This document shows, one piece after another, positions 1-62,634 of a DNA stretch of 64,000 nucleotides (positions are counted from its first letter, which is position 1; every line of letters begins with the position of its first letter). Location of the stretch: positions 64,001 to 128,000 of IMG/VR virus record IMGVR_UViG_3300005732_000005; one strand, 5' to 3'. The stretch is from a virus. Under the pieces are notes generated by a model. It did no database searches, was not told where the DNA came from, and saw only the letters and a program-made list of their open reading frames with translations. The translations under genes were made by a program, and so were the position numbers.

Positions 1-635
1 TTAGTAACTCTACTTATGCTAAAGATCGTGCTGGTAATGACCGTGCTGGTTATGTTAAGAACTTCCAAACAGCTTTCGAAGTTGCTGATGCTGATATGTA
101 CAACGGTGCGGCTAACGGTGCTAAGACTATCGACCTAGATGACCAAACTATTAACCCAGCAGATGAGTTTGAATTGTTCCGTAAGCACGTATTCAATAAA
201 GCTGGTGATGGTGGTGACAACTATCGTCTAGTAGTGTTAATGGGTAGCGGTTCATTCACTAAGCTTAAGAATCACTCAGACTACGTAGAAGCTTTTGCTA
301 ACTATGCTTCTAACGAAGAGCCTTTACGTCAACGTTTAGGTGGTCTACGTACTTCACGTGTTCTTGAGTGGCAGGGTGTTACTTACATCGAAGATGTTTC
401 TGGTAAGATTGATGATGACAAGATTATCGGTTTCCCACTAGATATGGAAGATATGTTCCAACTTCACTATGGTCATGCTGACACTATCGCTGCTCAGAAT
501 GGTGATGAGGCTGTTTCAGAAGCTTACCTTTACATCAACGAAACCGATGCTCGTAAGGTTGGCGTTGAAAGTGAAGCTGCTCTTGTGGCATGTATCACAC
601 GTCCTGAGTTGATCGCTCGTTGGACAGAATCATAA
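1..635 (+). CDS. Major capsid protein, C-terminal part (5' end outside window)
   Basis: Frame is open from the window start; ends ESEAALVACITRPELI, like the C-terminus of lambda-gpE-type capsid proteins; strongly biased codons (GCT, CGT, GGT); followed by a terminator. Confidence 0.8.
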   Translation, partial: SNSTYAKDRAGNDRAGYVKNFQTAFEVADADMYNGAANGAKTIDLDDQTINPADEFELFRKHVFNKAGDGGDNYRLVVLMGSGSFTKLKNHSDYVEAFANYASNEEPLRQRLGGLRTSRVLEWQGVTYIEDVSGKIDDDKIIGFPLDMEDMFQLHYGHADTIAAQNGDEAVSEAYLYINETDARKVGVESEAALVACITRPELIARWTES

Positions 636-1339: not shown

Positions 1340-2233
1340 ATGAATTATAACAAAACTGTCTACACATCTCCAATGGTATTTGCGGCAGGACAGGATCATG
1401 AAATAGAAGCTCCTCTAGGTGATACTTATTTCATAACACTGACGGAATGGCAAAACCGCCCTTTAAACCTTCTTCCTGCGAGACCTGCTATTGAAAGAGA
1501 TAAGGTTATACGTAACACCTTGTTTATCCGAGACACTAATAGTCATATTGCAGATATTGTTACAGAAGGTGAAGATTTAAATGTAGTTGTGGCGCTCACA
1601 GAAGCCTATGGGATAGATATCTCATTTGATTGGACAATCACTCACGGTGGAGATTTTATCAACGGAGAAGCGAACTGGGAGAAGGACGAGAGTAACTATA
1701 ACTACCAGCAACTTCACAGAGACACTGTGGATGCGGATTACAACGCAACACTTACTGGGCAAGCTACTATTGCGGCAGGGGATACCACTGTGACTATCAC
1801 TATTCCCACTGTAGACGATGCTGTTTTCACAGGTGGTGAAAACTCTTACAAGGTAAGTACAATCACTTTAAGTAATTACTCTGTCGGTACAGGTGATATT
1901 CTTCCAGATGAAAGTCGTACAAGTTCTTTGATCATTATGAGTGATAGTTCTCCTAGACCTATTATAGAGGGCGTGGTCTCTTTATGGGTTCGTATGGGTG
2001 AAGATACTGAAATGGAGAGATTAGGTGGCAGGTCTGATGCTGTGAGTTTTTCTCTTGGTCAAGACACTAATGGAGATAGTCTTTTAGAAACTTGTATCTT
2101 TGATGATACCCCTATCGAAAAGCTTATTTTTAGAGTAGCGGAAGATCCTACAGCACCCAACGGTGAAGATATTACACAAACCACTTTAAGGTTTAATGCA
2201 CAAATTAAGTCTGGTAGAAGAAACCTAAATTAA
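1340..2233 (+). CDS. Calx-beta domain virion protein (decoration/adhesin)
   Basis: VTEGEDLNVVVALT...DY...GQATIAAGDTTVTITIPTVDD...ITLSN follows the Calx-beta consensus. Confidence 0.65.
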   Translation: MNYNKTVYTSPMVFAAGQDHEIEAPLGDTYFITLTEWQNRPLNLLPARPAIERDKVIRNTLFIRDTNSHIADIVTEGEDLNVVVALTEAYGIDISFDWTITHGGDFINGEANWEKDESNYNYQQLHRDTVDADYNATLTGQATIAAGDTTVTITIPTVDDAVFTGGENSYKVSTITLSNYSVGTGDILPDESRTSSLIIMSDSSPRPIIEGVVSLWVRMGEDTEMERLGGRSDAVSFSLGQDTNGDSLLETCIFDDTPIEKLIFRVAEDPTAPNGEDITQTTLRFNAQIKSGRRNLN

Positions 2234-4130: not shown

Positions 4131-4280
4131 ATGCAATTTTATAAAAACATTTCGTTGGTGGAAATCTCTGACGGAAAGTGGCAACTAGTGGTGAAGGTTA
4201 ATGAGGTTAAAGAAGAGCGTATTAACTTGACAGATTCTCAACTTAACTACATCCTCTCTATGTTCCGTCAAGGAGTTTAA
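4131..4280 (+). CDS. Small protein, 49 aa (not in ORF track)
   Basis: AAGGA RBS; MQFYKNISLVEISDGKWQLVVKVNE...FRQGV*; fills the gap between neighbours. Confidence 0.6.
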   Translation: MQFYKNISLVEISDGKWQLVVKVNEVKEERINLTDSQLNYILSMFRQGV

Positions 4281-4282
4281 AT

Positions 4283-7111
4283 ATGGCTTTTACGAACGAG
4301 GAGATTATAAAACTAGCTGGTAATGTTCTAGCAGCGGGGGTTATAGATGCGGCAGGTAATAGTTGGTACGAAACATTAAACCCTAATAGTTTCATTACAG
4401 ACCCAGAAAGTATTTGGTCAGACATGACCTCTTTAAAAGGATTACCTGCTGATAACTTCAATCAAGCCGTACAAAACAGTGTAAATAATCCTGACCTTAT
4501 TGGAAGATACGGTATTGACGATGATGGTACTTTTAATGACACCACTGCATTAAGATTAACTCCCGTTGCAGGTACGAATAATACAACTTATATTTGTTAT
4601 AACGCATTTGGTGATCCTTCTGGGGGTGTTCAGAAAAACTGGATACAACCTCAGTTAATACCTAGGTCGAATGGTTTCCCTAGTTCAGCCTACTCACCTG
4701 TAATATTTTCAGGTTTACCTAGTGGAGGTAATAGGATACTCACTTCTTCTGGTAATGACGGTAACTGGGTATCACACTTCTGGAATCCTGCGGGTGGTTT
4801 GTTACTAATTTCTACTGATGAAGCGCCCCCTTCTGCGGTATTCCCTTCACAAGATTTATACCTCTGTGGTTTCTTTTATAATGGACAAACAGGCGGGGCA
4901 GGGGGTTCTTCAGGTAGCAGTATCTTATTAGAAGATCCTAACGGTAGGTGGAGAATTACGGCAGAGGATGGTGCTCATTTACATTTCCAGAGATGGGATT
5001 TAGAAGGTGGTGTACCTCAATGGAACACTCACTTTAAAATAGGCGCTTCTGCAACCACTGATGGTATCAACCTAACTAAACCTTATGCAATAAATGCCGA
5101 CCTCAATTTAAACTCCTTAGAGGACGGTGGTGACCCTATACTGAGGCCTATATTCTCTGTCAAGGATTTAGATGAGAACTTTGTATACGGCAATAGCGAC
5201 CACACTACAGTACTTGAAACAGCTAAAGGTAAAGAAGTAGAAAGAGCTGTAACTGTAATAAATCAACAGGAGTTTGAAAACAGACCCTTGTTTGATGAAG
5301 ATATAGTTTTAGATACCACAGATACTCCTGAACCAGACAGTGTTACAGAAATATCTTGGCACAGCGATATTAATTACAGTACAGATGCTTCTCATATACG
5401 TTTCAATGAAATAGCTTTTGATGTAGTGGAGTCTAGTGACGATGTTAATGGTGTACCTATAAGAATATCTGTTGAAAGGCAAGATGGAGAATTAGTACAA
5501 GAGAATATCAGTCTAGCTTCCCTCCAAGCGGGTGTTAATGGCGGTTTTAACTTTAAAACGGGTTATAATTTTTACACAATAAACCCTAAGTACAGTGATG
5601 TGCGTACTGCAAGAAACATCACTAGATTACAATTACCTATAGGTTACAAGGTTAAACTTAAGGGTGGTACTTATACCTTCTTCAATACTCAAACCAATCA
5701 AATGGAGAACCAGTTTGTACCTAGGCAAAAGTCTAAAGTTGAGTATGTGAATTATGTTAATGTCCTTGACGGTTCTAATGTAAAAGAGGAAGTGTACAAA
5801 GATTCTAATGTTGTATTGGATCACGGTGTAGGTAGTTGGTATCCAACTGAGACTACTCAGTTTACATCGCTGGCCTCCCCCTCTGAACATTCTGATATAT
5901 CCAGAGCGGTACTCGGTAATTATAACTCCAAGACATACGTTGCTTCAGGTAATGAAGGTCTACATATACTTTTCCAAGACGACTCAACTAGAAGACAATT
6001 CTGGACAGAACCCTCAGTAGAGCGCAGGAATGCAGGGGATGTACCACTACAAACAAAAACTATATCACGTCTTGAGATTGACGTAGAGAATTTGTTTGCT
6101 TCTGAATTGCAAGAGACGATTTGGGATGTAGTCAACATTGAGAAGATTTTACCTTTATTCAGGTATGAAGGCGATACACCTATCTCTTATCGTGTCTCCA
6201 TCGAATCTGCAAATAGTGTGGGTAATTTCTTGTTACAGGAAAACCAGACTAGGTATGCCTTACTGAATAAGAAGGGGGATACAAGGTTTGTTATAAATCC
6301 TGCAAACAACCCTACTGACCCAGACTACCACGAATTACGGTTACCTAGAGAAACCCTGACTGTGGATAACTTCACCAAAAAGAAGATAGTTTTTGAGTTC
6401 CATGAACCTATAAAAGTTTACGGTAACTATATAAATGTAACAGACCCTTTAGATCCTGAAGGTACAGGAACTTTTATTCCTAGTATAAAAGCTACGGTGG
6501 TACGAGTATTTGAGAGACCTATTGTTACAGGAGATGACTTAGAGCAACGGGTAGATGAAATAGAAGGTCAACAAGAGTGGGCTTATGCTACGCAACATAA
6601 TTGGCCCACTATTCATGAGATACCTACGGATATGTGGTTGGCAGATGGTGATGGAGAACCTATCTTCTGGGCTGAGGAGTCAGGGCTGGCAGCAGACCAA
6701 GACGAACATCAATGGTTGTTCGATACAGGGATGGAAGCTTATTACCAACCTTTAATCACCCAAGGTACTGTAGCTAATAACAATATAACCTTAAACCCCT
6801 TAGTTGTTCATGTACCTTATGATTCTGTTAAAGAGTTTAGTGTGGTATTCGGTTGGGATAATTCTTTGAATGATGATCCGCTTATCGAGACTGCTAGTTT
6901 TACATTTTACATAGCTACACATGGAAGAAATGCTGATACACAAATTAGTATACAAGTACCTAAAGGTGCAAGCTTAATTTACAATTTCACTAAGAGACGT
7001 AACGGAAGATATGGCTATAGGGCAACCCCGTTTAATGATAATCTTGCATCTACTTCGCAAGTAGGTGACTTATCTGACACATACCCTGCAGATCCGAATC
7101 CACCAATTTAA
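4283..7111 (+). CDS. Large virion fibre/structural protein
   Basis: 942 aa; Gly/Ser hinge followed by LLEDPNGRWRITAEDG beta-meander typical of trimeric fibres. Confidence 0.55.
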   Translation: MAFTNEEIIKLAGNVLAAGVIDAAGNSWYETLNPNSFITDPESIWSDMTSLKGLPADNFNQAVQNSVNNPDLIGRYGIDDDGTFNDTTALRLTPVAGTNNTTYICYNAFGDPSGGVQKNWIQPQLIPRSNGFPSSAYSPVIFSGLPSGGNRILTSSGNDGNWVSHFWNPAGGLLLISTDEAPPSAVFPSQDLYLCGFFYNGQTGGAGGSSGSSILLEDPNGRWRITAEDGAHLHFQRWDLEGGVPQWNTHFKIGASATTDGINLTKPYAINADLNLNSLEDGGDPILRPIFSVKDLDENFVYGNSDHTTVLETAKGKEVERAVTVINQQEFENRPLFDEDIVLDTTDTPEPDSVTEISWHSDINYSTDASHIRFNEIAFDVVESSDDVNGVPIRISVERQDGELVQENISLASLQAGVNGGFNFKTGYNFYTINPKYSDVRTARNITRLQLPIGYKVKLKGGTYTFFNTQTNQMENQFVPRQKSKVEYVNYVNVLDGSNVKEEVYKDSNVVLDHGVGSWYPTETTQFTSLASPSEHSDISRAVLGNYNSKTYVASGNEGLHILFQDDSTRRQFWTEPSVERRNAGDVPLQTKTISRLEIDVENLFASELQETIWDVVNIEKILPLFRYEGDTPISYRVSIESANSVGNFLLQENQTRYALLNKKGDTRFVINPANNPTDPDYHELRLPRETLTVDNFTKKKIVFEFHEPIKVYGNYINVTDPLDPEGTGTFIPSIKATVVRVFERPIVTGDDLEQRVDEIEGQQEWAYATQHNWPTIHEIPTDMWLADGDGEPIFWAEESGLAADQDEHQWLFDTGMEAYYQPLITQGTVANNNITLNPLVVHVPYDSVKEFSVVFGWDNSLNDDPLIETASFTFYIATHGRNADTQISIQVPKGASLIYNFTKRRNGRYGYRATPFNDNLASTSQVGDLSDTYPADPNPPI

Positions 7112-48792: not shown

Positions 48793-49021
48793 CTTCCTGT
48801 TATAAGAGTCGTTAGCTCTTTCTGAGATCACTCTCAGTGTCGGGTCATATCACATTCCACGAGGGAATCCCACCGTTTCAGATACACTTGTATCCTACGA
48901 ACAACTACGTTCTGACCTCCGCACGTTCCCTTTCGGGCTTCGCTCAGGATTACCTCGTAAGGCTTCCCTGAATTAGATGGGTTTTTCGACATACATTGCT
49001 GTATGAAGCCACAATGAGTTT
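48793..49021 (-). ncRNA. Group I intron 2 (229 nt, no ORF) in polymerase motif C
   Basis: P1 CCAU|AA with UUGUGG (U.G at splice site); terminal G; P10 UCAUU/GAUGA; P7 GAGGUCA/UGACCC; removal restores YYHDE. Confidence 0.9.
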
Positions 49022-49354
49022 ATGGTAGTAAATGGTCCTAGCTACACCCTTATCCAACAAACCTTCTTCTAAAGCTCTCTCGTGCCACAAAATACCTGCC
49101 AAATCCATCCCTATAGCTCCTGCACTTTGGAGATAACAATTTAACAATGAGTGCTTACTTCGTGTCCAGATTTTTCTTCCGTCAACGGCAACGATATACT
49201 TTTTACCTGAAGATTCCCAAACTTTCTCTAGATGTTCCTTTCTTTTCTTTAATCCGATGTTTCCATCCCAGAAAGCATCAATAACTTTTTGTCCTACTTC
49301 CTTACTTACTCCTAACATATTTGCTATTTTAGGGGCTGCTGCACCATACATTAT
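49022..49354 (-). CDS. DNA polymerase family A, exon 2 (111 codons)
   Basis: IMYGA...DGRKI...SKHSLLNCYLQSAGAI...YYH. Confidence 0.9.
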
Positions 49355-49648
49355 CGTTACAGTCACACAAGGTCGTTAATCTTGCGCGGTTCTCTTATGA
49401 ACTCCTGTACGTCTCCGTACAGACTAGACTATATCTTTCTCTTCAACTTTACTTGTTAAGAGATCTGCCGTTTCGATTTAAAGCTTTCCGCTACCACTTG
49501 GCTCTACTCCCATCTCAGGGATAGTCGTTACACGTTCAAGAACATAATGTTCAAGCTTCGCTCGGTATTGTCTCTTCAAAAGAAGTAACTTCCACCGAAT
49601 TAGACAGTATTCAATTATAGGTTTCCCTATAAAGGGGCTAATTATTTA
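49355..49648 (-). ncRNA. Group I intron 1 (294 nt, no ORF) in polymerase motif B
   Basis: P1 GGU|UAA with UUAGCC; P7 ACGACUA/UAGUCU and AAGAUAUAGUC S element; terminal G; removal restores RQGGKGITYG|IMYG. Confidence 0.93.
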
Positions 49649-51607
49649 ACCATAAGTGATGCCTTTGCCACCTTGCCTAGTTACCTCCCTTCCTGCAGCC
49701 TTGGAGTAGTTTTCAGCATTTCTTGAGTGAGCATCTTCTTCCTCCATTATCCTAAGATATTCTCCTCCGTCAAAGTCATAGGCTGCCCACGCTGCACACA
49801 TCCCTTCCAAGTTACTACCATCGATACCTAGTTGCCAGAATCCTTTTGGAACGGTGAATAAGCTCCTCATTTCATGACCTAAAAGTGCATCTGTAGAAGG
49901 TATATTTGCTATAACTGAGTGTTTTCTGCGATTCGTATTGGTCAGACCACTATATCTTGCAGGTAATTTACCATCTATTTTCAGACGAGGGTGGTTCAGC
50001 CAACCAGTTTCCTTATCTTCGTCAAAAGCTTTAATTACCGACCTCCTGTTACGAAGAGATAGCCACTTAACTATCTGACCCGCCATCTCACCATCAATCT
50101 TTTCCAGATTAGGGCAAAGCTCCCCACGATCATCTTTCAACTTTGCAGACATCGGTAAGAATCTTCCCTTTTTAACCACCCTTTGCATATCTTTGTGCTT
50201 CTCAGAGGTGATTTTCCTAATATCGAAGCCCATCTCCTCATTAATCCATTTTATGTAGATGGAGTCCTTCTTATCCTGCACCCATTCCCATGCCCTTTCC
50301 AAGACTTCAAATTCTGGGCGGTTCTTCTTGTTCTCGTCTCTTGTAACATCTTTTGTTCCTAGTATGGTAGGTATCCAACCACCTTCCTTAACCAACCACT
50401 CCTTTATATCTGCCTGATTAGCTAGTTTCATCGGCTCTTTTAAGAACTCTTCTGGAATATGTCTATCCTCTAATTGTTTTCTTAGTTTCTTCATCTGGTC
50501 ATCAGGTAAAGGAACTAAGGTATTAGCTTTATTAAGCTGACCACGTATAAAATCGGGCATCTTATCTTCATCCTCCACACCCATCTTAATACAATAGTTA
50601 TAACCGTTCTTACTTAGAGATCCGTCCTTCTTAAAGGCAGTTTTCGGAGGAGATACGTGTTGAAAGTATTCCTCATTAGGTTTGTAGCCTAAATACTTTC
50701 TTGCATAGTTCCATCCGTGACTACTTATTTCCCCTGCCTTATCAAAAGGATTAGCTGGAAAGTTAGGTTGACGACTCTCAGGTACATGTTTTAAAGGCAG
50801 TTTGGGTTCCACATCTTCCTCTATTTCCCTCATCATACTATCCACTTTCTCAAGCAATTTCCAAGCAGCCTTTTCATCGAAGACTACTCCCTGCTCCTCT
50901 TGGATTTGCATCAGATAGTCTGATTGAGAATTTCTTAATAAGGGAACTCTCCAATCAATACCCTTATCCTTCCCATCCTGAGATTCTTTAACCAAAGCTT
51001 GCCATTGCAATTCATTTATGATCACATCAACCCATACTCTGTCGCAATACTTCCACAAAGGTAGCCCTCTCCAGTCTTCTATTTGAACTTTTTGATTTGC
51101 AAGCTTATAGCCCCAGCTCTCTAATGAATGGCTGCCAATCGTCTTAGCCTTACCTCCAGAAGGATTCTTAACCTTAGAGGGACATCCGTGAGGTAATGGT
51201 CGGTCAGGGTATAGTGCCCTTGACATACTTAGTGTATCAAACAATCTTAGTTTTCTACTACCAATACTTTCTGGAAACATACTTGATTCCAATCCAAATT
51301 GATCAGCGATTGCCAGCAAATCGAATCCAAACTGGTTTTGACAACCTATAGCAGAAATGTCAGAGTCGTTCTCAATCCAATCAGGAAACTCTTTTAAATC
51401 TTTAATTCTTAGGTTGACATTTTTCTTATCAACAAATTCTTTTGCTTCTTTAAACTCGGGATGGGAGTGATCAAGAAAGATCACCCAATCATCTTTTGCA
51501 TATTGTTTAAAGAGCATTACGTGAAAGTGCGTCATATGGTCTTCAGGTGCAATGCTTTTACCAGCTAAACCGTCACTTTCAGTATCGTAAATATATAAGC
51601 CCTTCAA
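49649..51607 (-). CDS. DNA polymerase family A, exon 1 (3'-5' exonuclease, motif A); spliced product 905 aa
   Basis: YDTESDG ExoI; HSLESWG; TNTNRRKH...NIPS; GIDGSNLE motif A; Tyr at the Pol I 762-equivalent site. Confidence 0.92.
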
Positions 51608-55069: not shown

Positions 55070-55277
55070 TACCACTCTCCATAAGACGACCCCACTCTTC
55101 ACTTAAAATCTTCTCTACAGATTCTCTGTGGTATTTCAATTGTGACAAATGATTCCATAAAACAGGATTCACTTCCACCTTAAAGAACTCTGGAGCAATG
55201 TCCTTAAACCCTTCATCAAGATTATAATACTCTTGAATCATTAATATTTCATATTCGTTTGGTAACTTACTCATCAC
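55062..55277 (-). CDS. Hypothetical protein
   Basis: Operon packing. Confidence 0.5.
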   Translation of the reverse strand: MMSKLPNEYEILMIQEYYNLDEGFKDIAPEFFKVEVNPVLWNHLSQLKYHRESVEKILSEEWGRLMESGNE

Positions 55278-55515
55278 CTACCCCTCTTTCTAAAACAGTA
55301 TTTTTATAAGAGTTTAGATCCCATTCAGTTGGGTCACCTTTACACCAAACACCTGCCTGACCTGAAAAATATTCCGACATATAATTTACAGTACTCCCTT
55401 TCTCAGCACAAAGCTTTTCAGCATAATAAATATCTACACCATCGATTGTTTGCCAAAAACAACCTGACAAGGATAGTACTCCTGCAGTAATAATTGACAT
55501 CTTAATTTTACTCAT
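55267..55515 (-). CDS. Lipoprotein
   Basis: Signal peptide with lipobox LSGC; GGAGG RBS. Confidence 0.7.
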   Translation of the reverse strand: MSKIKMSIITAGVLSLSGCFWQTIDGVDIYYAEKLCAEKGSTVNYMSEYFSGQAGVWCKGDPTEWDLNSYKNTVLERGVGDE

Positions 55516-55566
55516 AACAAATATTTCCTCCGTCTATCCACTATTTTAATATATTAATACCTATCT

Positions 55567-55587
55567 TTAGTGATTGTCAATCACTAA
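55567..55587. promoter_or_regulatory. Perfect 21-bp palindrome over the -35 of the leftward promoter
   Basis: TTAGTGATTG-T-CAATCACTAA containing TTGACA on -. Confidence 0.6.
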
Positions 55588-55626
55588 TTAGACAAATTTG
55601 TATTTATTTAAAATAATGTTATAATT

Positions 55627-55876
55627 AAGTATAGGGTGCAGGGAAAGCAGAGCTTTCTTTACGTCACCACCCTGATACTTGGTTAATCCTGTATAAACCA
55701 CTAGGTTTGATTAGGTTCGAAACTGATCACTATAAACGCTTAGAGGCAAAGCCTCAACGCTTAGGACTGAATCCGTTTAGTGGATAGCGTTAGCTATCTT
55801 CAGTATGTGGCATCACAATTTTCTTGACTAGCCAAATCTTCTAATACTTGTTGTATTGGGTGAAGTTCATCCCATC
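55627..55876 (+). ncRNA. Candidate structured ncRNA (~245 nt)
   Basis: ORF-free intergenic; TGTTATAAT at 55617-55625; at least seven stems visible. Confidence 0.55.
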
Positions 55877-56134
55877 TTAAAGGGTGTTTAATTTCCATTC
55901 TTCCTCCATACACTCTTTCATTCTTAAAGTTGTAGCATCATTCAAATACCAAGTATCAAAAGGTAGTTTACCTTGTTCACGTTCACTTAGTTCCAAATTA
56001 GCTAACCAAATCTTTGCATTAGTAAGGGCTGTGAAATTAGGATTACCCTTCCCTTTACCAATTGTATTATAATCAATAATTTGTTGACATTTTTCTCTTG
56101 TTACAATCACACCCACCTCCTCCAAAATTTCCAA
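55877..56134 (-). CDS. Hypothetical protein
   Basis: Operon packing. Confidence 0.5.
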   Translation of the reverse strand: MEILEEVGVIVTREKCQQIIDYNTIGKGKGNPNFTALTNAKIWLANLELSEREQGKLPFDTWYLNDATTLRMKECMEEEWKLNTL

Positions 56135-61479: not shown

Positions 61480-61755
61480 ATGAATTTCAAAGAAAAACTG
61501 CAGTCAATCTACACAGCACCTTCTGAAGAAGAGATCCTTGATATGCAAGACTTTCTTCATCGACACGTAGAATATTGTTTTAAAGAGGGTGTTGATTCAA
61601 GAAGAATTCTTATTTCAAGTGAAGAATTTATGAGGAATGATATTGACTCGAAGAAGTTTATCAAGTATCTTGAACAGGAAGATATCGAGCACGAAGTTGG
61701 TAGGACAAATGCTTTGAGTAAAATTGAGAATGTTGTGATTGATTTGGAGGTGTAA
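61480..61755 (+). CDS. Hypothetical protein
   Basis: GAGGAG RBS before MNFKE. Confidence 0.55.
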   Translation: MNFKEKLQSIYTAPSEEEILDMQDFLHRHVEYCFKEGVDSRRILISSEEFMRNDIDSKKFIKYLEQEDIEHEVGRTNALSKIENVVIDLEV

Positions 61756-61758
61756 GAG

Positions 61759-62634
61759 ATGAGTACAGAGAAGAAATATTTATCAGATGGTCGTAAAGTT
61801 GTAGTTATTGGCTCTATCAACAAAACAGAATATATTGTGCAAGAGGTGTATGTTACTGAGGATGGTAGTGAGATCCCAAGTGGTGAAAACTTTACAGCAA
61901 AGAATCTTCTTGATGAACCAGCTAAATCTTGGAAAGAGAAAGAAGCTGAGAAAATTGAGAAACAATTAGAGGATTGGAAACTTGAGAAAAAGAAGCTTGA
62001 CACGGAGATCCGTAACCTTAAACAAAAGCGTCTTGCACATAGTACCTTATTACAATCAAATGAGAAGTTTTTAGAATTGTTCGAAGGTTGTGATACAGAA
62101 TTTATGGCTGACCTAATGACAGGTAATATGAAATATGTTATGCCTAAAGAGGATGCTTATTCACGTTTCGAAGTGAAAACTTTTGAAGAGGCAGTATATC
62201 GTTTTGAACGTCAATACTATGATGATGTTTATACTTTTGAAGGTATTCGTATGATTTCAGTAATGGCCGCTAAAGGAAGTAATTACCCTTCAGATAGAAA
62301 GTTTCATGCAAAGATTCACACTTACCAAGATGGTAGTGGTGGTAGTCGAGAACACGATTTCTTCAAGGACTTGGAATCTGTTAAAGAGGAACTTACTAAA
62401 CGTATGTATAACCTTTTAAAGGAACGTAACAAGAAGAGTGATAAACCTTCTGCAACCACGCCTCGGACAACATTAACCTTTAAAGAGATTGCTGATCTTG
62501 AAAAGTGGATTATTGTTCCAGAGGAACTAAAGGAAGCTTCTAAAGAAGAAGATGTTCGTTTGGCAAAGGTTCGTTATGAAGAAGCTATTAAACGTGCAGA
62601 GGAGCAGTTTAATAAAGAAATTGGGGAGGTGTAG
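61759..62634 (+). CDS. Hypothetical coiled-coil phage protein
   Basis: 291-aa ORF, GGAGG RBS. Confidence 0.65.
   Translation: MSTEKKYLSDGRKVVVIGSINKTEYIVQEVYVTEDGSEIPSGENFTAKNLLDEPAKSWKEKEAEKIEKQLEDWKLEKKKLDTEIRNLKQKRLAHSTLLQSNEKFLELFEGCDTEFMADLMTGNMKYVMPKEDAYSRFEVKTFEEAVYRFERQYYDDVYTFEGIRMISVMAAKGSNYPSDRKFHAKIHTYQDGSGGSREHDFFKDLESVKEELTKRMYNLLKERNKKSDKPSATTPRTTLTFKEIADLEKWIIVPEELKEASKEEDVRLAKVRYEEAIKRAEEQFNKEIGEV

Follow-up and report, generated by a model that had tools for sequence, protein, structure and literature searches.

A Probable Orphan Single-Guide RNA of the TnpB/Cas12f-Like Type in a Complete Vibrio-Type Phage

A conserved structured RNA is encoded on the plus strand of a complete 140-kb Vibrio-type phage genome, directly behind the element TGTTATAAT. 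Because its homologues adjoin TnpB/Cas12f-like nucleases and the CRISPR arrays of these nucleases, sequence comparison assigns it to the guide-RNA family (tracrRNA or omega-RNA-like scaffolds) of that nuclease lineage; a first-pass annotation, made from the DNA letters, had taken it for an unrecognised class of RNA, which no longer holds. With high probability, we are dealing with a natural single-guide RNA that belongs to a miniature type V (TnpB/Cas12f-like) system and is orphaned in this phage. The new point is a complete phage with a guide RNA and no nuclease at all.

Results

The Locus and Its Relatives

The window, by which we mean the whole 64,000-nt stretch of DNA that was analyzed, corresponds to bases 64001-128000 of a 140,374-bp IMG/VR virus record, which has direct terminal repeats and is rated 100% complete. 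The primase/helicase of this phage is 82% identical to its counterpart in Vibrio phage 11895-B1, and the rV5-like Vequintavirinae are more distant kin. The RNA locus is surrounded by small minus-strand genes, which form a block upstream of RNase H, primase, and polA; almost none of these small genes are common to 11895-B1, and the region is hypervariable, being populated by small orphan genes.

DNA relatives of the locus were absent from 50,697 phage records in both near and distant search modes, and comparison with the whole records of Vibrio phage 11895-B1 and Cronobacter phage CR3 gave chance matches only. As queries, both flanking proteins were without a phage match, an 82-aa ORF with a lipoprotein signal motif was an orphan among 5.8 billion proteins, and RNase H had no relative in IMG/VR. 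The sequencing runs listed for the stretch comprised one estuary metagenome with 4% of the sampled words and no RNA run. When IMG/VR was scanned for the pattern of the repeated AACGCTTAG motif, most matches were due to chance, and one was a contig, L029, which was also the sole IMG/VR match of an 18-mer from the conserved GGACUGAAUCCGUUUAG core; a 16-mer scan from a hairpin resembling a tRNA T-loop gave chance matches only. L029 is a 7-kb contig of a related phage, with 87% identity to window positions 61741-62633, and its positions 6153-6411 are 85% identical to window positions 55542-55809.

Promoters

Two putative promoters diverge from the gap ahead of the RNA:

55617..55625, plus strand: extended -10 promoter element TGTTATAAT, a recurrent motif, followed by TAAGTATA as in other copies of the motif
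55551..55588, minus strand: divergent promoter TTGACA-18-TAATAT (55580-55551), predicted to drive the next minus-strand gene

The element TGTTATAAT, which the first-pass annotation had placed directly ahead of the RNA, is indeed there, and it recurs 13 times in the 140-kb genome against 3.6-5.3 copies expected. Nine of the 13 copies are intergenic and lie 22-105 nt upstream of an ORF on the same strand, one of these ORFs being the structural tail-completion/Neck1 gene; the copy at 55617 is the only intergenic one without a same-strand ORF downstream. The bases that follow the motif are often T/A-A-n-n-T-A, and they are so at 55617 as well. Since the motif recurs in this way, mostly upstream of same-strand ORFs, its assignment as a promoter appears reasonable. 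Homologues carry predicted promoters at an equal distance from the RNA (TTGACA-16-TAAAAT in L029 and TGTTACAAT in L059, another nuclease locus), and in both the window and L029 the conserved RNA block starts directly behind the plus-strand promoter. Thus placed, TGTTATAAT would give rise to the plus-strand RNA; a plus-strand terminator or defined RNA 3' end was not seen at the locus. The minus-strand promoter sits in a palindrome, TTAGTGATTGTCAATCACTAA (55568-55588), and L029 partly keeps the region 55551-55588, with the same promoter and leader placed ahead of its nuclease gene.

The Neighboring Nuclease

The neighbor of the RNA in L029 is a divergently transcribed gene for a 483-aa TnpB/Cas12f-like protein. 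This protein matches PF07282, the Cas12f1-like TNB domain (1.2e-15), as well as RuvC and OrfB_IS605, and reaches 108 bits with the NCBIfam model guided_TnpB (cut-off 100), with similarity to Cas12f2 below threshold. The closest solved structures are TnpB and Cas12f chains, matched weakly and over the C-terminal half only (best E 3e-11). The homologues retain the Asp-Glu-Asp catalytic residues, as judged by eye on the L029 translation. About 65 relatives, 36-96% identical, occur in phage-like contigs and in Vibrio, Photobacterium, Veronia, and Motilimonas genomes; those in bacteria are 54-62% identical to the phage type, with tracrRNAs that are far more diverged. A scan of genome contigs with the nuclease alignment produced no confirmed relative.

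We built a covariance model, R1, from a seed alignment of seven RNA copies at five loci. With this model, the RNA was found beside eight of the nine homologous nuclease loci that were fetched with their DNA, for 13 matches in total; the ninth, L066, gave no match, and its contig starts inside the array, to which the RNA would lie upstream. Outside the seed, there are four matches in three bacterial genomes (Vibrio and Veronia), at 45-79 bits and E 1e-9 to 1e-19: 79 bits for L062, 57 for L063/L064 (a duplicate pair), and 55 and 45 for L065. The whole phage genome holds a single RNA copy by R1.

Fold and Covariation of the Scaffold

The consensus structure resolves the window copy as follows:

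55632..55811, plus strand: guide-RNA scaffold of ~180 nt (model R1, 188.6 bits; covariation over 12 homologues)
55632-38/55668-74, plus strand: helix H1
55640-48/55652-60, plus strand: helix H2
55677-91/55702-16, plus strand: helix H3, 14 bp
55717-26, plus strand: conserved single-stranded GGUUCGAAAC
55727-37/55775-83, plus strand: helix H4/5
55738-47/55751-60, plus strand: helix H6
55764-66/55772-74, plus strand: helix H7

RNAalifold, run on the seven-copy alignment, gave 50 pairs, 30 of them with compensatory changes. The check on covariation among homologues that had been proposed for this RNA came out in its favor, with double changes at 35 of the 50 consensus pairs in the 12-member alignment. 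Paired cells made up 91.7% across the 12 RNAs, as compared with 36-50% when partners were slid by 1-3 columns, and none of 500 shuffles reached the observed pairing values; these counts come from an alignment fitted to the model, in which seed members or a near-duplicate of one make up eight of the 12 rows. The window copy forms 49 of the 50 consensus pairs, and since nine of the 49 are G-U, the plus strand is fixed, which bears out the earlier strand preference.

Folding energy is less telling. Single-sequence folding was only moderately better than shuffled controls, and equally so on both strands (z -2.41 for plus, -2.63 for minus), and it would not by itself establish a structured RNA; minimum-free-energy folds of the single sequence also mispredict the central domain relative to the comparative structure. 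The substitutions between the window and L029 speak more clearly: two of 100 paired columns differ, both wobble-neutral, against 18 of 94 unpaired columns (Fisher p = 7e-5), a pattern which shows that the RNA fold was under selection somewhere along the two lineages. This pattern does not show function after loss of the nuclease, because it may predate that loss or have arisen wholly in the L029 lineage.

The core of the first-pass annotation, a highly structured non-coding plus-strand RNA antisense to its neighbors, thus stands, as do several of its helices (UAGGGUG/CACCCUG, GAAAGC/GCUUUC, GAGGC/GCCUC, and GAUAGC/GCUAUC) and the long-range pairing of UAUAAACG with CGUUUAGUG that it had listed as an alternative. 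Comparative analysis lends no support to UGGUU/AACCA, UGAUUAG/CUGAUCA, or ACUGAA/UUCAGU, in whose place it finds the 14-bp helix 55677-91/55702-16 and a GGA-CUGAA-UCC hairpin. The fold of ~245 nt proves to be a scaffold of ~180 nt plus a guide.

An RNA of another known class (a group I intron as in polA, a tRNA-like RNA, a ribozyme, or a terminator cluster) is a far-fetched explanation. It could draw on an Rfam group I intron 6 kb away, on the GUUCGAAA loop, which resembles a tRNA T-loop, and on the near-equal folding of both strands; yet the T-loop-like hairpin is not conserved in homologues, and neither the two polA introns nor any other part of the window showed similarity to the RNA. Rfam returned no family at gathering thresholds, the IS605-orfB motifs included, and, at E <= 10, only an irrelevant snoRNA-like match (E 3.3), and ARAGORN found nothing at the locus, consistent with the earlier statement that the RNA is not a tRNA, tmRNA, or RNase P. 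The intron reading was considered in its own right and rejected: the RNA is unlike the two polA introns of the source phage, and the small ORF described below has no exon 2 in any frame and no PHROG match for the downstream frame.

Split and Fused Forms, and a Covarying Pseudoknot

In bacteria, the order at these loci is RNA, CRISPR array, nuclease. The arrays have 28-nt repeats and 32-nt spacers in an exact 60-nt period, with 3-10 repeats, and Veronia carries a second set of RNA and array downstream. At phage loci, the 28-nt repeat is present two to three times. The bacteria have a split form, in which a separate tracrRNA has a 3' anti-repeat against the 28-nt repeats, and so do three of the five phage-type loci examined; the split copies in three phage loci end in GAGAUAUAACAC, which can pair with 15 of the 16 bases at repeat positions 1-16. 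The fused forms are the window copy, the divergent copy of L029, two L059 copies (one of them followed by a degenerate repeat), and the single L058 copy. The scaffolds of L058 and L060 are 96% identical, and one is fused while the other is split with an array.

In the fused form, as judged from the alignment, the repeat:anti-repeat duplex is reduced to a short hairpin or a direct joint, which would therefore place scaffold and guide on one transcript. In the window copy, the hairpin is followed by a tail like the 3' half of the repeat, then GUGGC, then the guide. The elements concerned are:

55784..55797, plus strand: hairpin AUAGC-GUUA-GCUAU (5 bp), which replaces the repeat:anti-repeat duplex, from the alignment with tracrRNA-type copies
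55663..55667, plus strand: pseudoknot strand a, GUCAC, in the internal loop between H2 and H1, pairing with 55807-11
55807..55811, plus strand: pseudoknot strand b, GUGGC, the last scaffold block, corresponding to the GUAAG repeat end

Five loop pentamers occur in the family, and each is matched by its own repeat end or 3' tail, giving 59 of 60 pairs across 12 RNAs; in this count, the partner for the minus-strand copy of L059 was chosen by eye. The combinations are:

Loop CUUAC, partner GUAAG
Loop CUUCA, partner UGAAG
Loop CUUCU, partner GGAAG
Loop GUAGA, partner UCUAC
Loop GUCAC, partner GUGAC (L029) or GUGGC (window)

In the solved Cas12f and TnpB complexes, the guide RNA forms a pseudoknot at the equivalent place. 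Based on this anatomy and on what is established for TnpB and Cas12f, the ~180-nt scaffold would bind the ~483-aa nuclease, its internal loop would form a pseudoknot with the five nucleotides ahead of the guide, and the next ~20 nt past the scaffold would pair with target DNA.

The Guide Segment and a Broken Gene

Two features meet at the end of the scaffold:

55812..55843, plus strand: candidate guide segment, first ~20 nt AUCACAAUUUUCUUGACUAG, flanking DNA; homology ends sharply at 55811/55812
55800..55898, minus strand: 32-codon ORF with a GGAGG ribosome-binding site, a remnant of the 65-aa phrog_15899, CR3_233-like

The window and L029 diverge exactly past GUG(G/A)C, at window position 55811. 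The guides of the window, L029, and L058 appear to be whatever DNA lies beyond the scaffold end, as in the omega-RNA of transposons. The guide segment of the window is antisense to codons ~19-29 of the small minus-strand ORF and has no other match in the genome or in the fetched loci, nuclease promoters and loci included.

The 32-codon ORF matches phrog_15899 positions 1-29 (E 1.7e-7) and shares 57-60% identity with CR3_233-type proteins over their N-terminal half. Its native codons end at an Asp (55812-14), and the scaffold end supplies Ala-Thr-Tyr-stop; the C-terminal 35 residues of the phrog_15899 family are absent across the whole genome. Because the native ORF ends there and the C-terminal half is absent, the RNA module abuts a truncated gene at the scaffold/guide boundary, much as the omega-RNA of TnpB abuts its insertion site. 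An uninterrupted allele of the truncated gene was not found; a search for the intact phrog_15899 gene in the L058 phage and 11895-B1 gave no match, and the control genomes were equally silent. The presence of this ORF corrects the view of the region as an ORF-free gap, since the right third of the RNA once proposed is coding on the other strand, and UGGC/GCCA, CUAAUAC/GUAUUGG, and the terminal hairpin of that proposal fall within the ORF region and are not conserved.

The same overlap raises the question of whether the plus-strand transcript is a cis-antisense regulator. It would base-pair with, or run into, early minus-strand transcripts of the 32-codon ORF and its upstream genes when promoters of the TGTTATAAT class become active, with the fold as a mere stabilizing 5' structure. 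Past 55800, such a transcript would be complementary to the minus-strand genes over its full length; no plus-strand terminator is seen; and the same promoter class precedes the tail-completion/Neck1 structural gene. However, conservation and covariation of the scaffold extend to loci with unrelated downstream sequence, and conservation ends exactly where the antisense overlap begins; we therefore regard this role as improbable.

The L029 Cassette

Two bases past the point of divergence, L029 becomes homologous to the source phage genome from 127942 downwards. In the orientation of the nuclease, the contig reads as backbone up to 127942, an outward-reading fused guide RNA, the divergent promoters, and the nuclease; the nuclease stop is followed by a diverged, full-length RNA paralogue (the tracrRNA) with its own TTGACT-17-TATAAT promoter, two 28-nt repeats separated by a 32-nt spacer, and backbone homologous to the genome from 128697 onward. 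The homology of the flanks at 127942 and 128697 thus indicates that the cassette replaces ~750 bp of backbone. Each end gives rise to a guide directed out of the cassette, into the adjoining flank.

Of 30 positions in the L029 guide, 28 match the source phage, and the two mismatches fall within the first 10 nt; given this near-match, the source phage would be a target of L029-type cassettes. The other spacers and guides had no significant match in the source genome or in any fetched locus, and the array spacers of L062 and L065 had none in the phage collection. We read the L029 cassette as an RNA-guided homing arrangement, in which it would cut the cassette-free alleles of co-infecting relatives; as no insertion-free allele was found, this reading draws on one comparison, that of L029 with the source genome. 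The called genes in the fetched flanks (2-3 kb per side where the contig allowed) include no transposase. Lacking TnpA and present as a single copy in the genome, the element does not look like an IS200/IS605 or IS607 right end, and mobility is suggested only by its differing insertion sites in two phages.

The Orphan State

The source genome contains no TnpB/Cas12f-like gene by protein search, tblastn, or Pfam and NCBIfam profiles, with profile searches that do match control genomes, and no copy of the 28-nt repeat. The orphan is most likely the surviving outward-reading end of a lost RNA-guided cassette: the source phage would have kept one such end, joined to the stump of the interrupted gene, and would have lost, or never received, the nuclease. 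The candidates for its present role are a trans-acting guide or decoy, or a recent fossil.

As an inert relic, the RNA would be the leftover end of a deleted cassette, perhaps still transcribed, with no cognate nuclease ever present. A complete genome with neither nuclease nor repeat is what such a history would leave, as are a junction in a broken gene whose other half is gone, a hypervariable setting of small orphan genes, and a guide that is plain flanking DNA with no other match. On the other hand, the 49 of 50 pairs and the pseudoknot are intact, equal to or better than those of nuclease-adjacent copies; the full-consensus phage promoter is kept; and the substitutions relative to L029 avoid paired positions (p = 7e-5). 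Weighing these points, we see the relic as a real possibility that falls somewhat short of probable.

In the trans-acting role, the orphan RNA would load a nuclease supplied by a co-infecting, cassette-bearing phage or by the host. One version makes it a decoy or hijacker: the nuclease-less guide RNA would load the Cas12f/TnpB-like nuclease of a putative Vibrio-family host or of a rival phage and either titrate it away from its own crRNAs or redirect it, as a type V counterpart of the viral single-guide RNAs for Cas9. Of the functions first suggested for this RNA, antitoxin mimic, ribozyme, and packaging RNA have nothing in their support, and the protein sponge persists solely in this altered shape, as an orphan RNA soaking up nuclease made elsewhere. 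The combination of orphan status with a strong promoter, an intact fold, and purifying selection is suggestive; cognate nucleases exist in related phages and in Vibrio, Veronia, Photobacterium, and Motilimonas genomes; the source phage itself carries the 28/30 near-match to the L029 guide; and there are precedents in phage sgRNAs against Cas9 (bioRxiv 10.64898/2026.06.01.729453) and in single-repeat RNA anti-CRISPRs (PMC11656645). Against this, the fused RNA type co-resides with a nuclease in L029 and L059 and would thus be a normal component of the system, not a dedicated inhibitor; the guide matches no fetched nuclease promoter or locus; and no spacer of the fetched arrays matches the source phage. 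We therefore entertain the decoy or hijacker role tentatively, as an unlikely outcome.

Discussion

The RNA resembles the tracrRNA-crRNA of Cas12f (type V-F/V-U) and the omega-RNA (reRNA) of ISDra2 in having a long structured scaffold that adjoins a 400-500-aa RuvC/zinc-ribbon nuclease, in its 3' anti-repeat:repeat pairing, in a pseudoknot directly before the guide, and in the 3'-terminal position of that guide. The fused form further recalls the IS200/IS605 omega-RNA, whose guide is likewise the DNA that flanks the element. Unlike those RNAs, the scaffold matches no Rfam family; the RNA genes appear to have their own promoters, stay clear of the nuclease ORF, take upstream, downstream, or divergent positions relative to it, and can number two to three copies per nuclease; the fetched flanks hold no TnpA, and the window holds no nuclease at all.

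The re-fused omega-RNAs of Altae-Tran et al. (2023; PMC10691335) are a close parallel, with a tracrRNA joined to the 3' half-repeat, a single hard-wired guide, and whole guide units duplicated around the effector. Those lineages (Sigma-TnpB) are described there as immobilized, nuclease-dead regulators in bacteria. In contrast, the nucleases considered here are phage-borne and keep Asp-Glu-Asp, as judged by eye, and the guide reads into the phage backbone.

A second parallel is with vsgRNAs, rAcrIIA1, and Racr, where a phage has a compact natural sgRNA or a repeat mimic without the effector gene. Inhibition of Cas9 or of class 1 effectors has been demonstrated experimentally for these RNAs (vsgRNAs and rAcrIIA1, bioRxiv 10.64898/2026.06.01.729453 and 10.64898/2026.06.03.729762; Racr), and the guides of vsgRNAs aim at the cas9 promoter (the same two preprints). 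The present RNA differs in belonging to a TnpB/Cas12f-like system and in having flanking DNA as its guide. Precedents for nuclease-less phage guide mimics thus exist for Cas9 and class 1, and none was found in the literature consulted for type V/TnpB.

Small phage-borne, TnpB-like Cas12 proteins with tracrRNA and short arrays have also been described as Cas12 hacker/Cas12p (bioRxiv 10.1101/2025.01.20.633832), CasPhi, and CasLambda, with the TranC intermediates between transposons and CRISPR as a related case, and the phage miniature Cas12 systems are thought to target rival nucleic acids (bioRxiv 10.1101/2025.01.20.633832). Cas12p has 500-700 aa (same preprint), as compared with 483 aa here. 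The match of the 483-aa protein to CasPhi and Cas12e-type chains is confined to the RuvC/zinc-ribbon core, and no named subtype is assigned.

With 12 members, a covarying pseudoknot, and a covariance model, a scaffold family absent from Rfam now has a definition; it appears to serve an uncharacterised lineage of ~483-aa TnpB/Cas12f-like proteins in Vibrio-family bacteria and their phages. Within this one close family, split (tracrRNA plus array) and fused (omega-like) forms coexist, which bears on how omega-RNAs and type V CRISPR systems change into one another. For genome editing, a small nuclease that comes with its own compact natural sgRNA may be of practical interest as well.

For the biology of these phages, the outward-reading cassette of the L029 type looks like RNA-guided homing between phages, and the complete phage with a guide RNA only may carry the recently fossilized remains of such a cassette or else an RNA that makes use of the nuclease of another. 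A bolder proposal, which we put forward as speculation and consider rather unlikely, is that the phage deliberately keeps its nuclease-less sgRNA as a weapon or shield against other phages, a late flood of scaffold capturing the nuclease of a rival or of the host. If true, capture would block cleavage of the phage's own genome, with its near-match to a rival guide, or would alternatively turn the nuclease on alleles of the gene that adjoins the RNA. Type V/TnpB systems would then have their first described RNA-based anti-nuclease or hijacker, and lytic marine phages would be a pool in which RNA-guided homing cassettes and counter-measures both circulate.

Promoters and neighbors of the guide-RNA gene

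The motif TGTTATAAT, a phage-specific element that resembles a promoter, occurs 13 times in the whole phage genome against about 4-5 copies expected, often continues as (T/A)A-n-n-TA, and in most cases lies 22-105 nt upstream of an ORF start. Copies within the window are at 1352 (-), 2235, 12971, 15902 (-), 18306, 21960 (-), 30492, 39018, and 55617. A perfect 10-1-10 palindrome, TTAGTGATTG-T-CAATCACTAA (55568-55588), overlaps the -35 element (TTGACA) of a minus-strand promoter, with the guide-RNA promoter just downstream; its core, TTGTCAA...ACTAATT, is kept in L029, the contig of a related phage that carries the nuclease gene, and the palindrome looks like an operator serving the divergent promoter pair.

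An 82-aa ORF on the minus strand (55267-55515), which bears a lipoprotein-type signal (…LSLSGC…) and has no relatives among 5.8 billion proteins, sits where L029 has its nuclease gene, and the promoter and leader ahead of the two are homologous. Elsewhere in the window, the split polA gene holds a group I intron (74.9 bits, Rfam).

Features of the split polA gene
48950-49366, polA ORF
49405-49657 (-), group I intron
49646-51607, polA ORF

Nuclease loci in related phages and bacteria

The mini-array, tracrRNA, nuclease, and fused guide of L029 form a 2.2-kb cassette (4219-6411) that replaces about 750 bp. In the genome of the window phage, these correspond to 127943-128696 (from window 63943 on) and take in the first part of a gene whose start is near position 127967. 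The guides at the two ends of this cassette both point into flanking DNA.

In the bacterial relatives, the arrays comprise 3-10 repeats, each 28 nt long with GUAAG or GAAG at its end, and the spacers are 32 nt.

CRISPR arrays at bacterial loci
L062: 1330-1837
L063: 1817-1964
L065: 1275-1841 and 3798-4065
L066: 27-474

No cas1 or cas2 gene was called within 2 kb at these loci. At L062 and L065, integrase genes of phage type are no more than about 1.5 kb away, and the array spacers had no match in the phage collection.

Split and fused guide forms

Another phage-type locus, L059, is a single 2.2-kb metagenome contig on which one nuclease gene is surrounded by three guide-RNA genes.

Guide-RNA genes of L059
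43-270 (-), divergent, promoter TGTTACAAT
336-558 (+), fused unit with a degenerate repeat after it, immediately ahead of the ribosome-binding site of the nuclease gene
2089-2232 (+), downstream of the nuclease, incomplete at the contig end

The scaffolds of two further phage-type loci, L058 (4196-4255) and L060 (4680-4925), share 96% identity and yet take different forms: in L058 the scaffold runs straight into half a repeat (the 3' half) plus one guide, whereas in L060 the anti-repeat is free and a two-repeat array comes next. This pair looks like a recent interconversion between split and fused guide forms.
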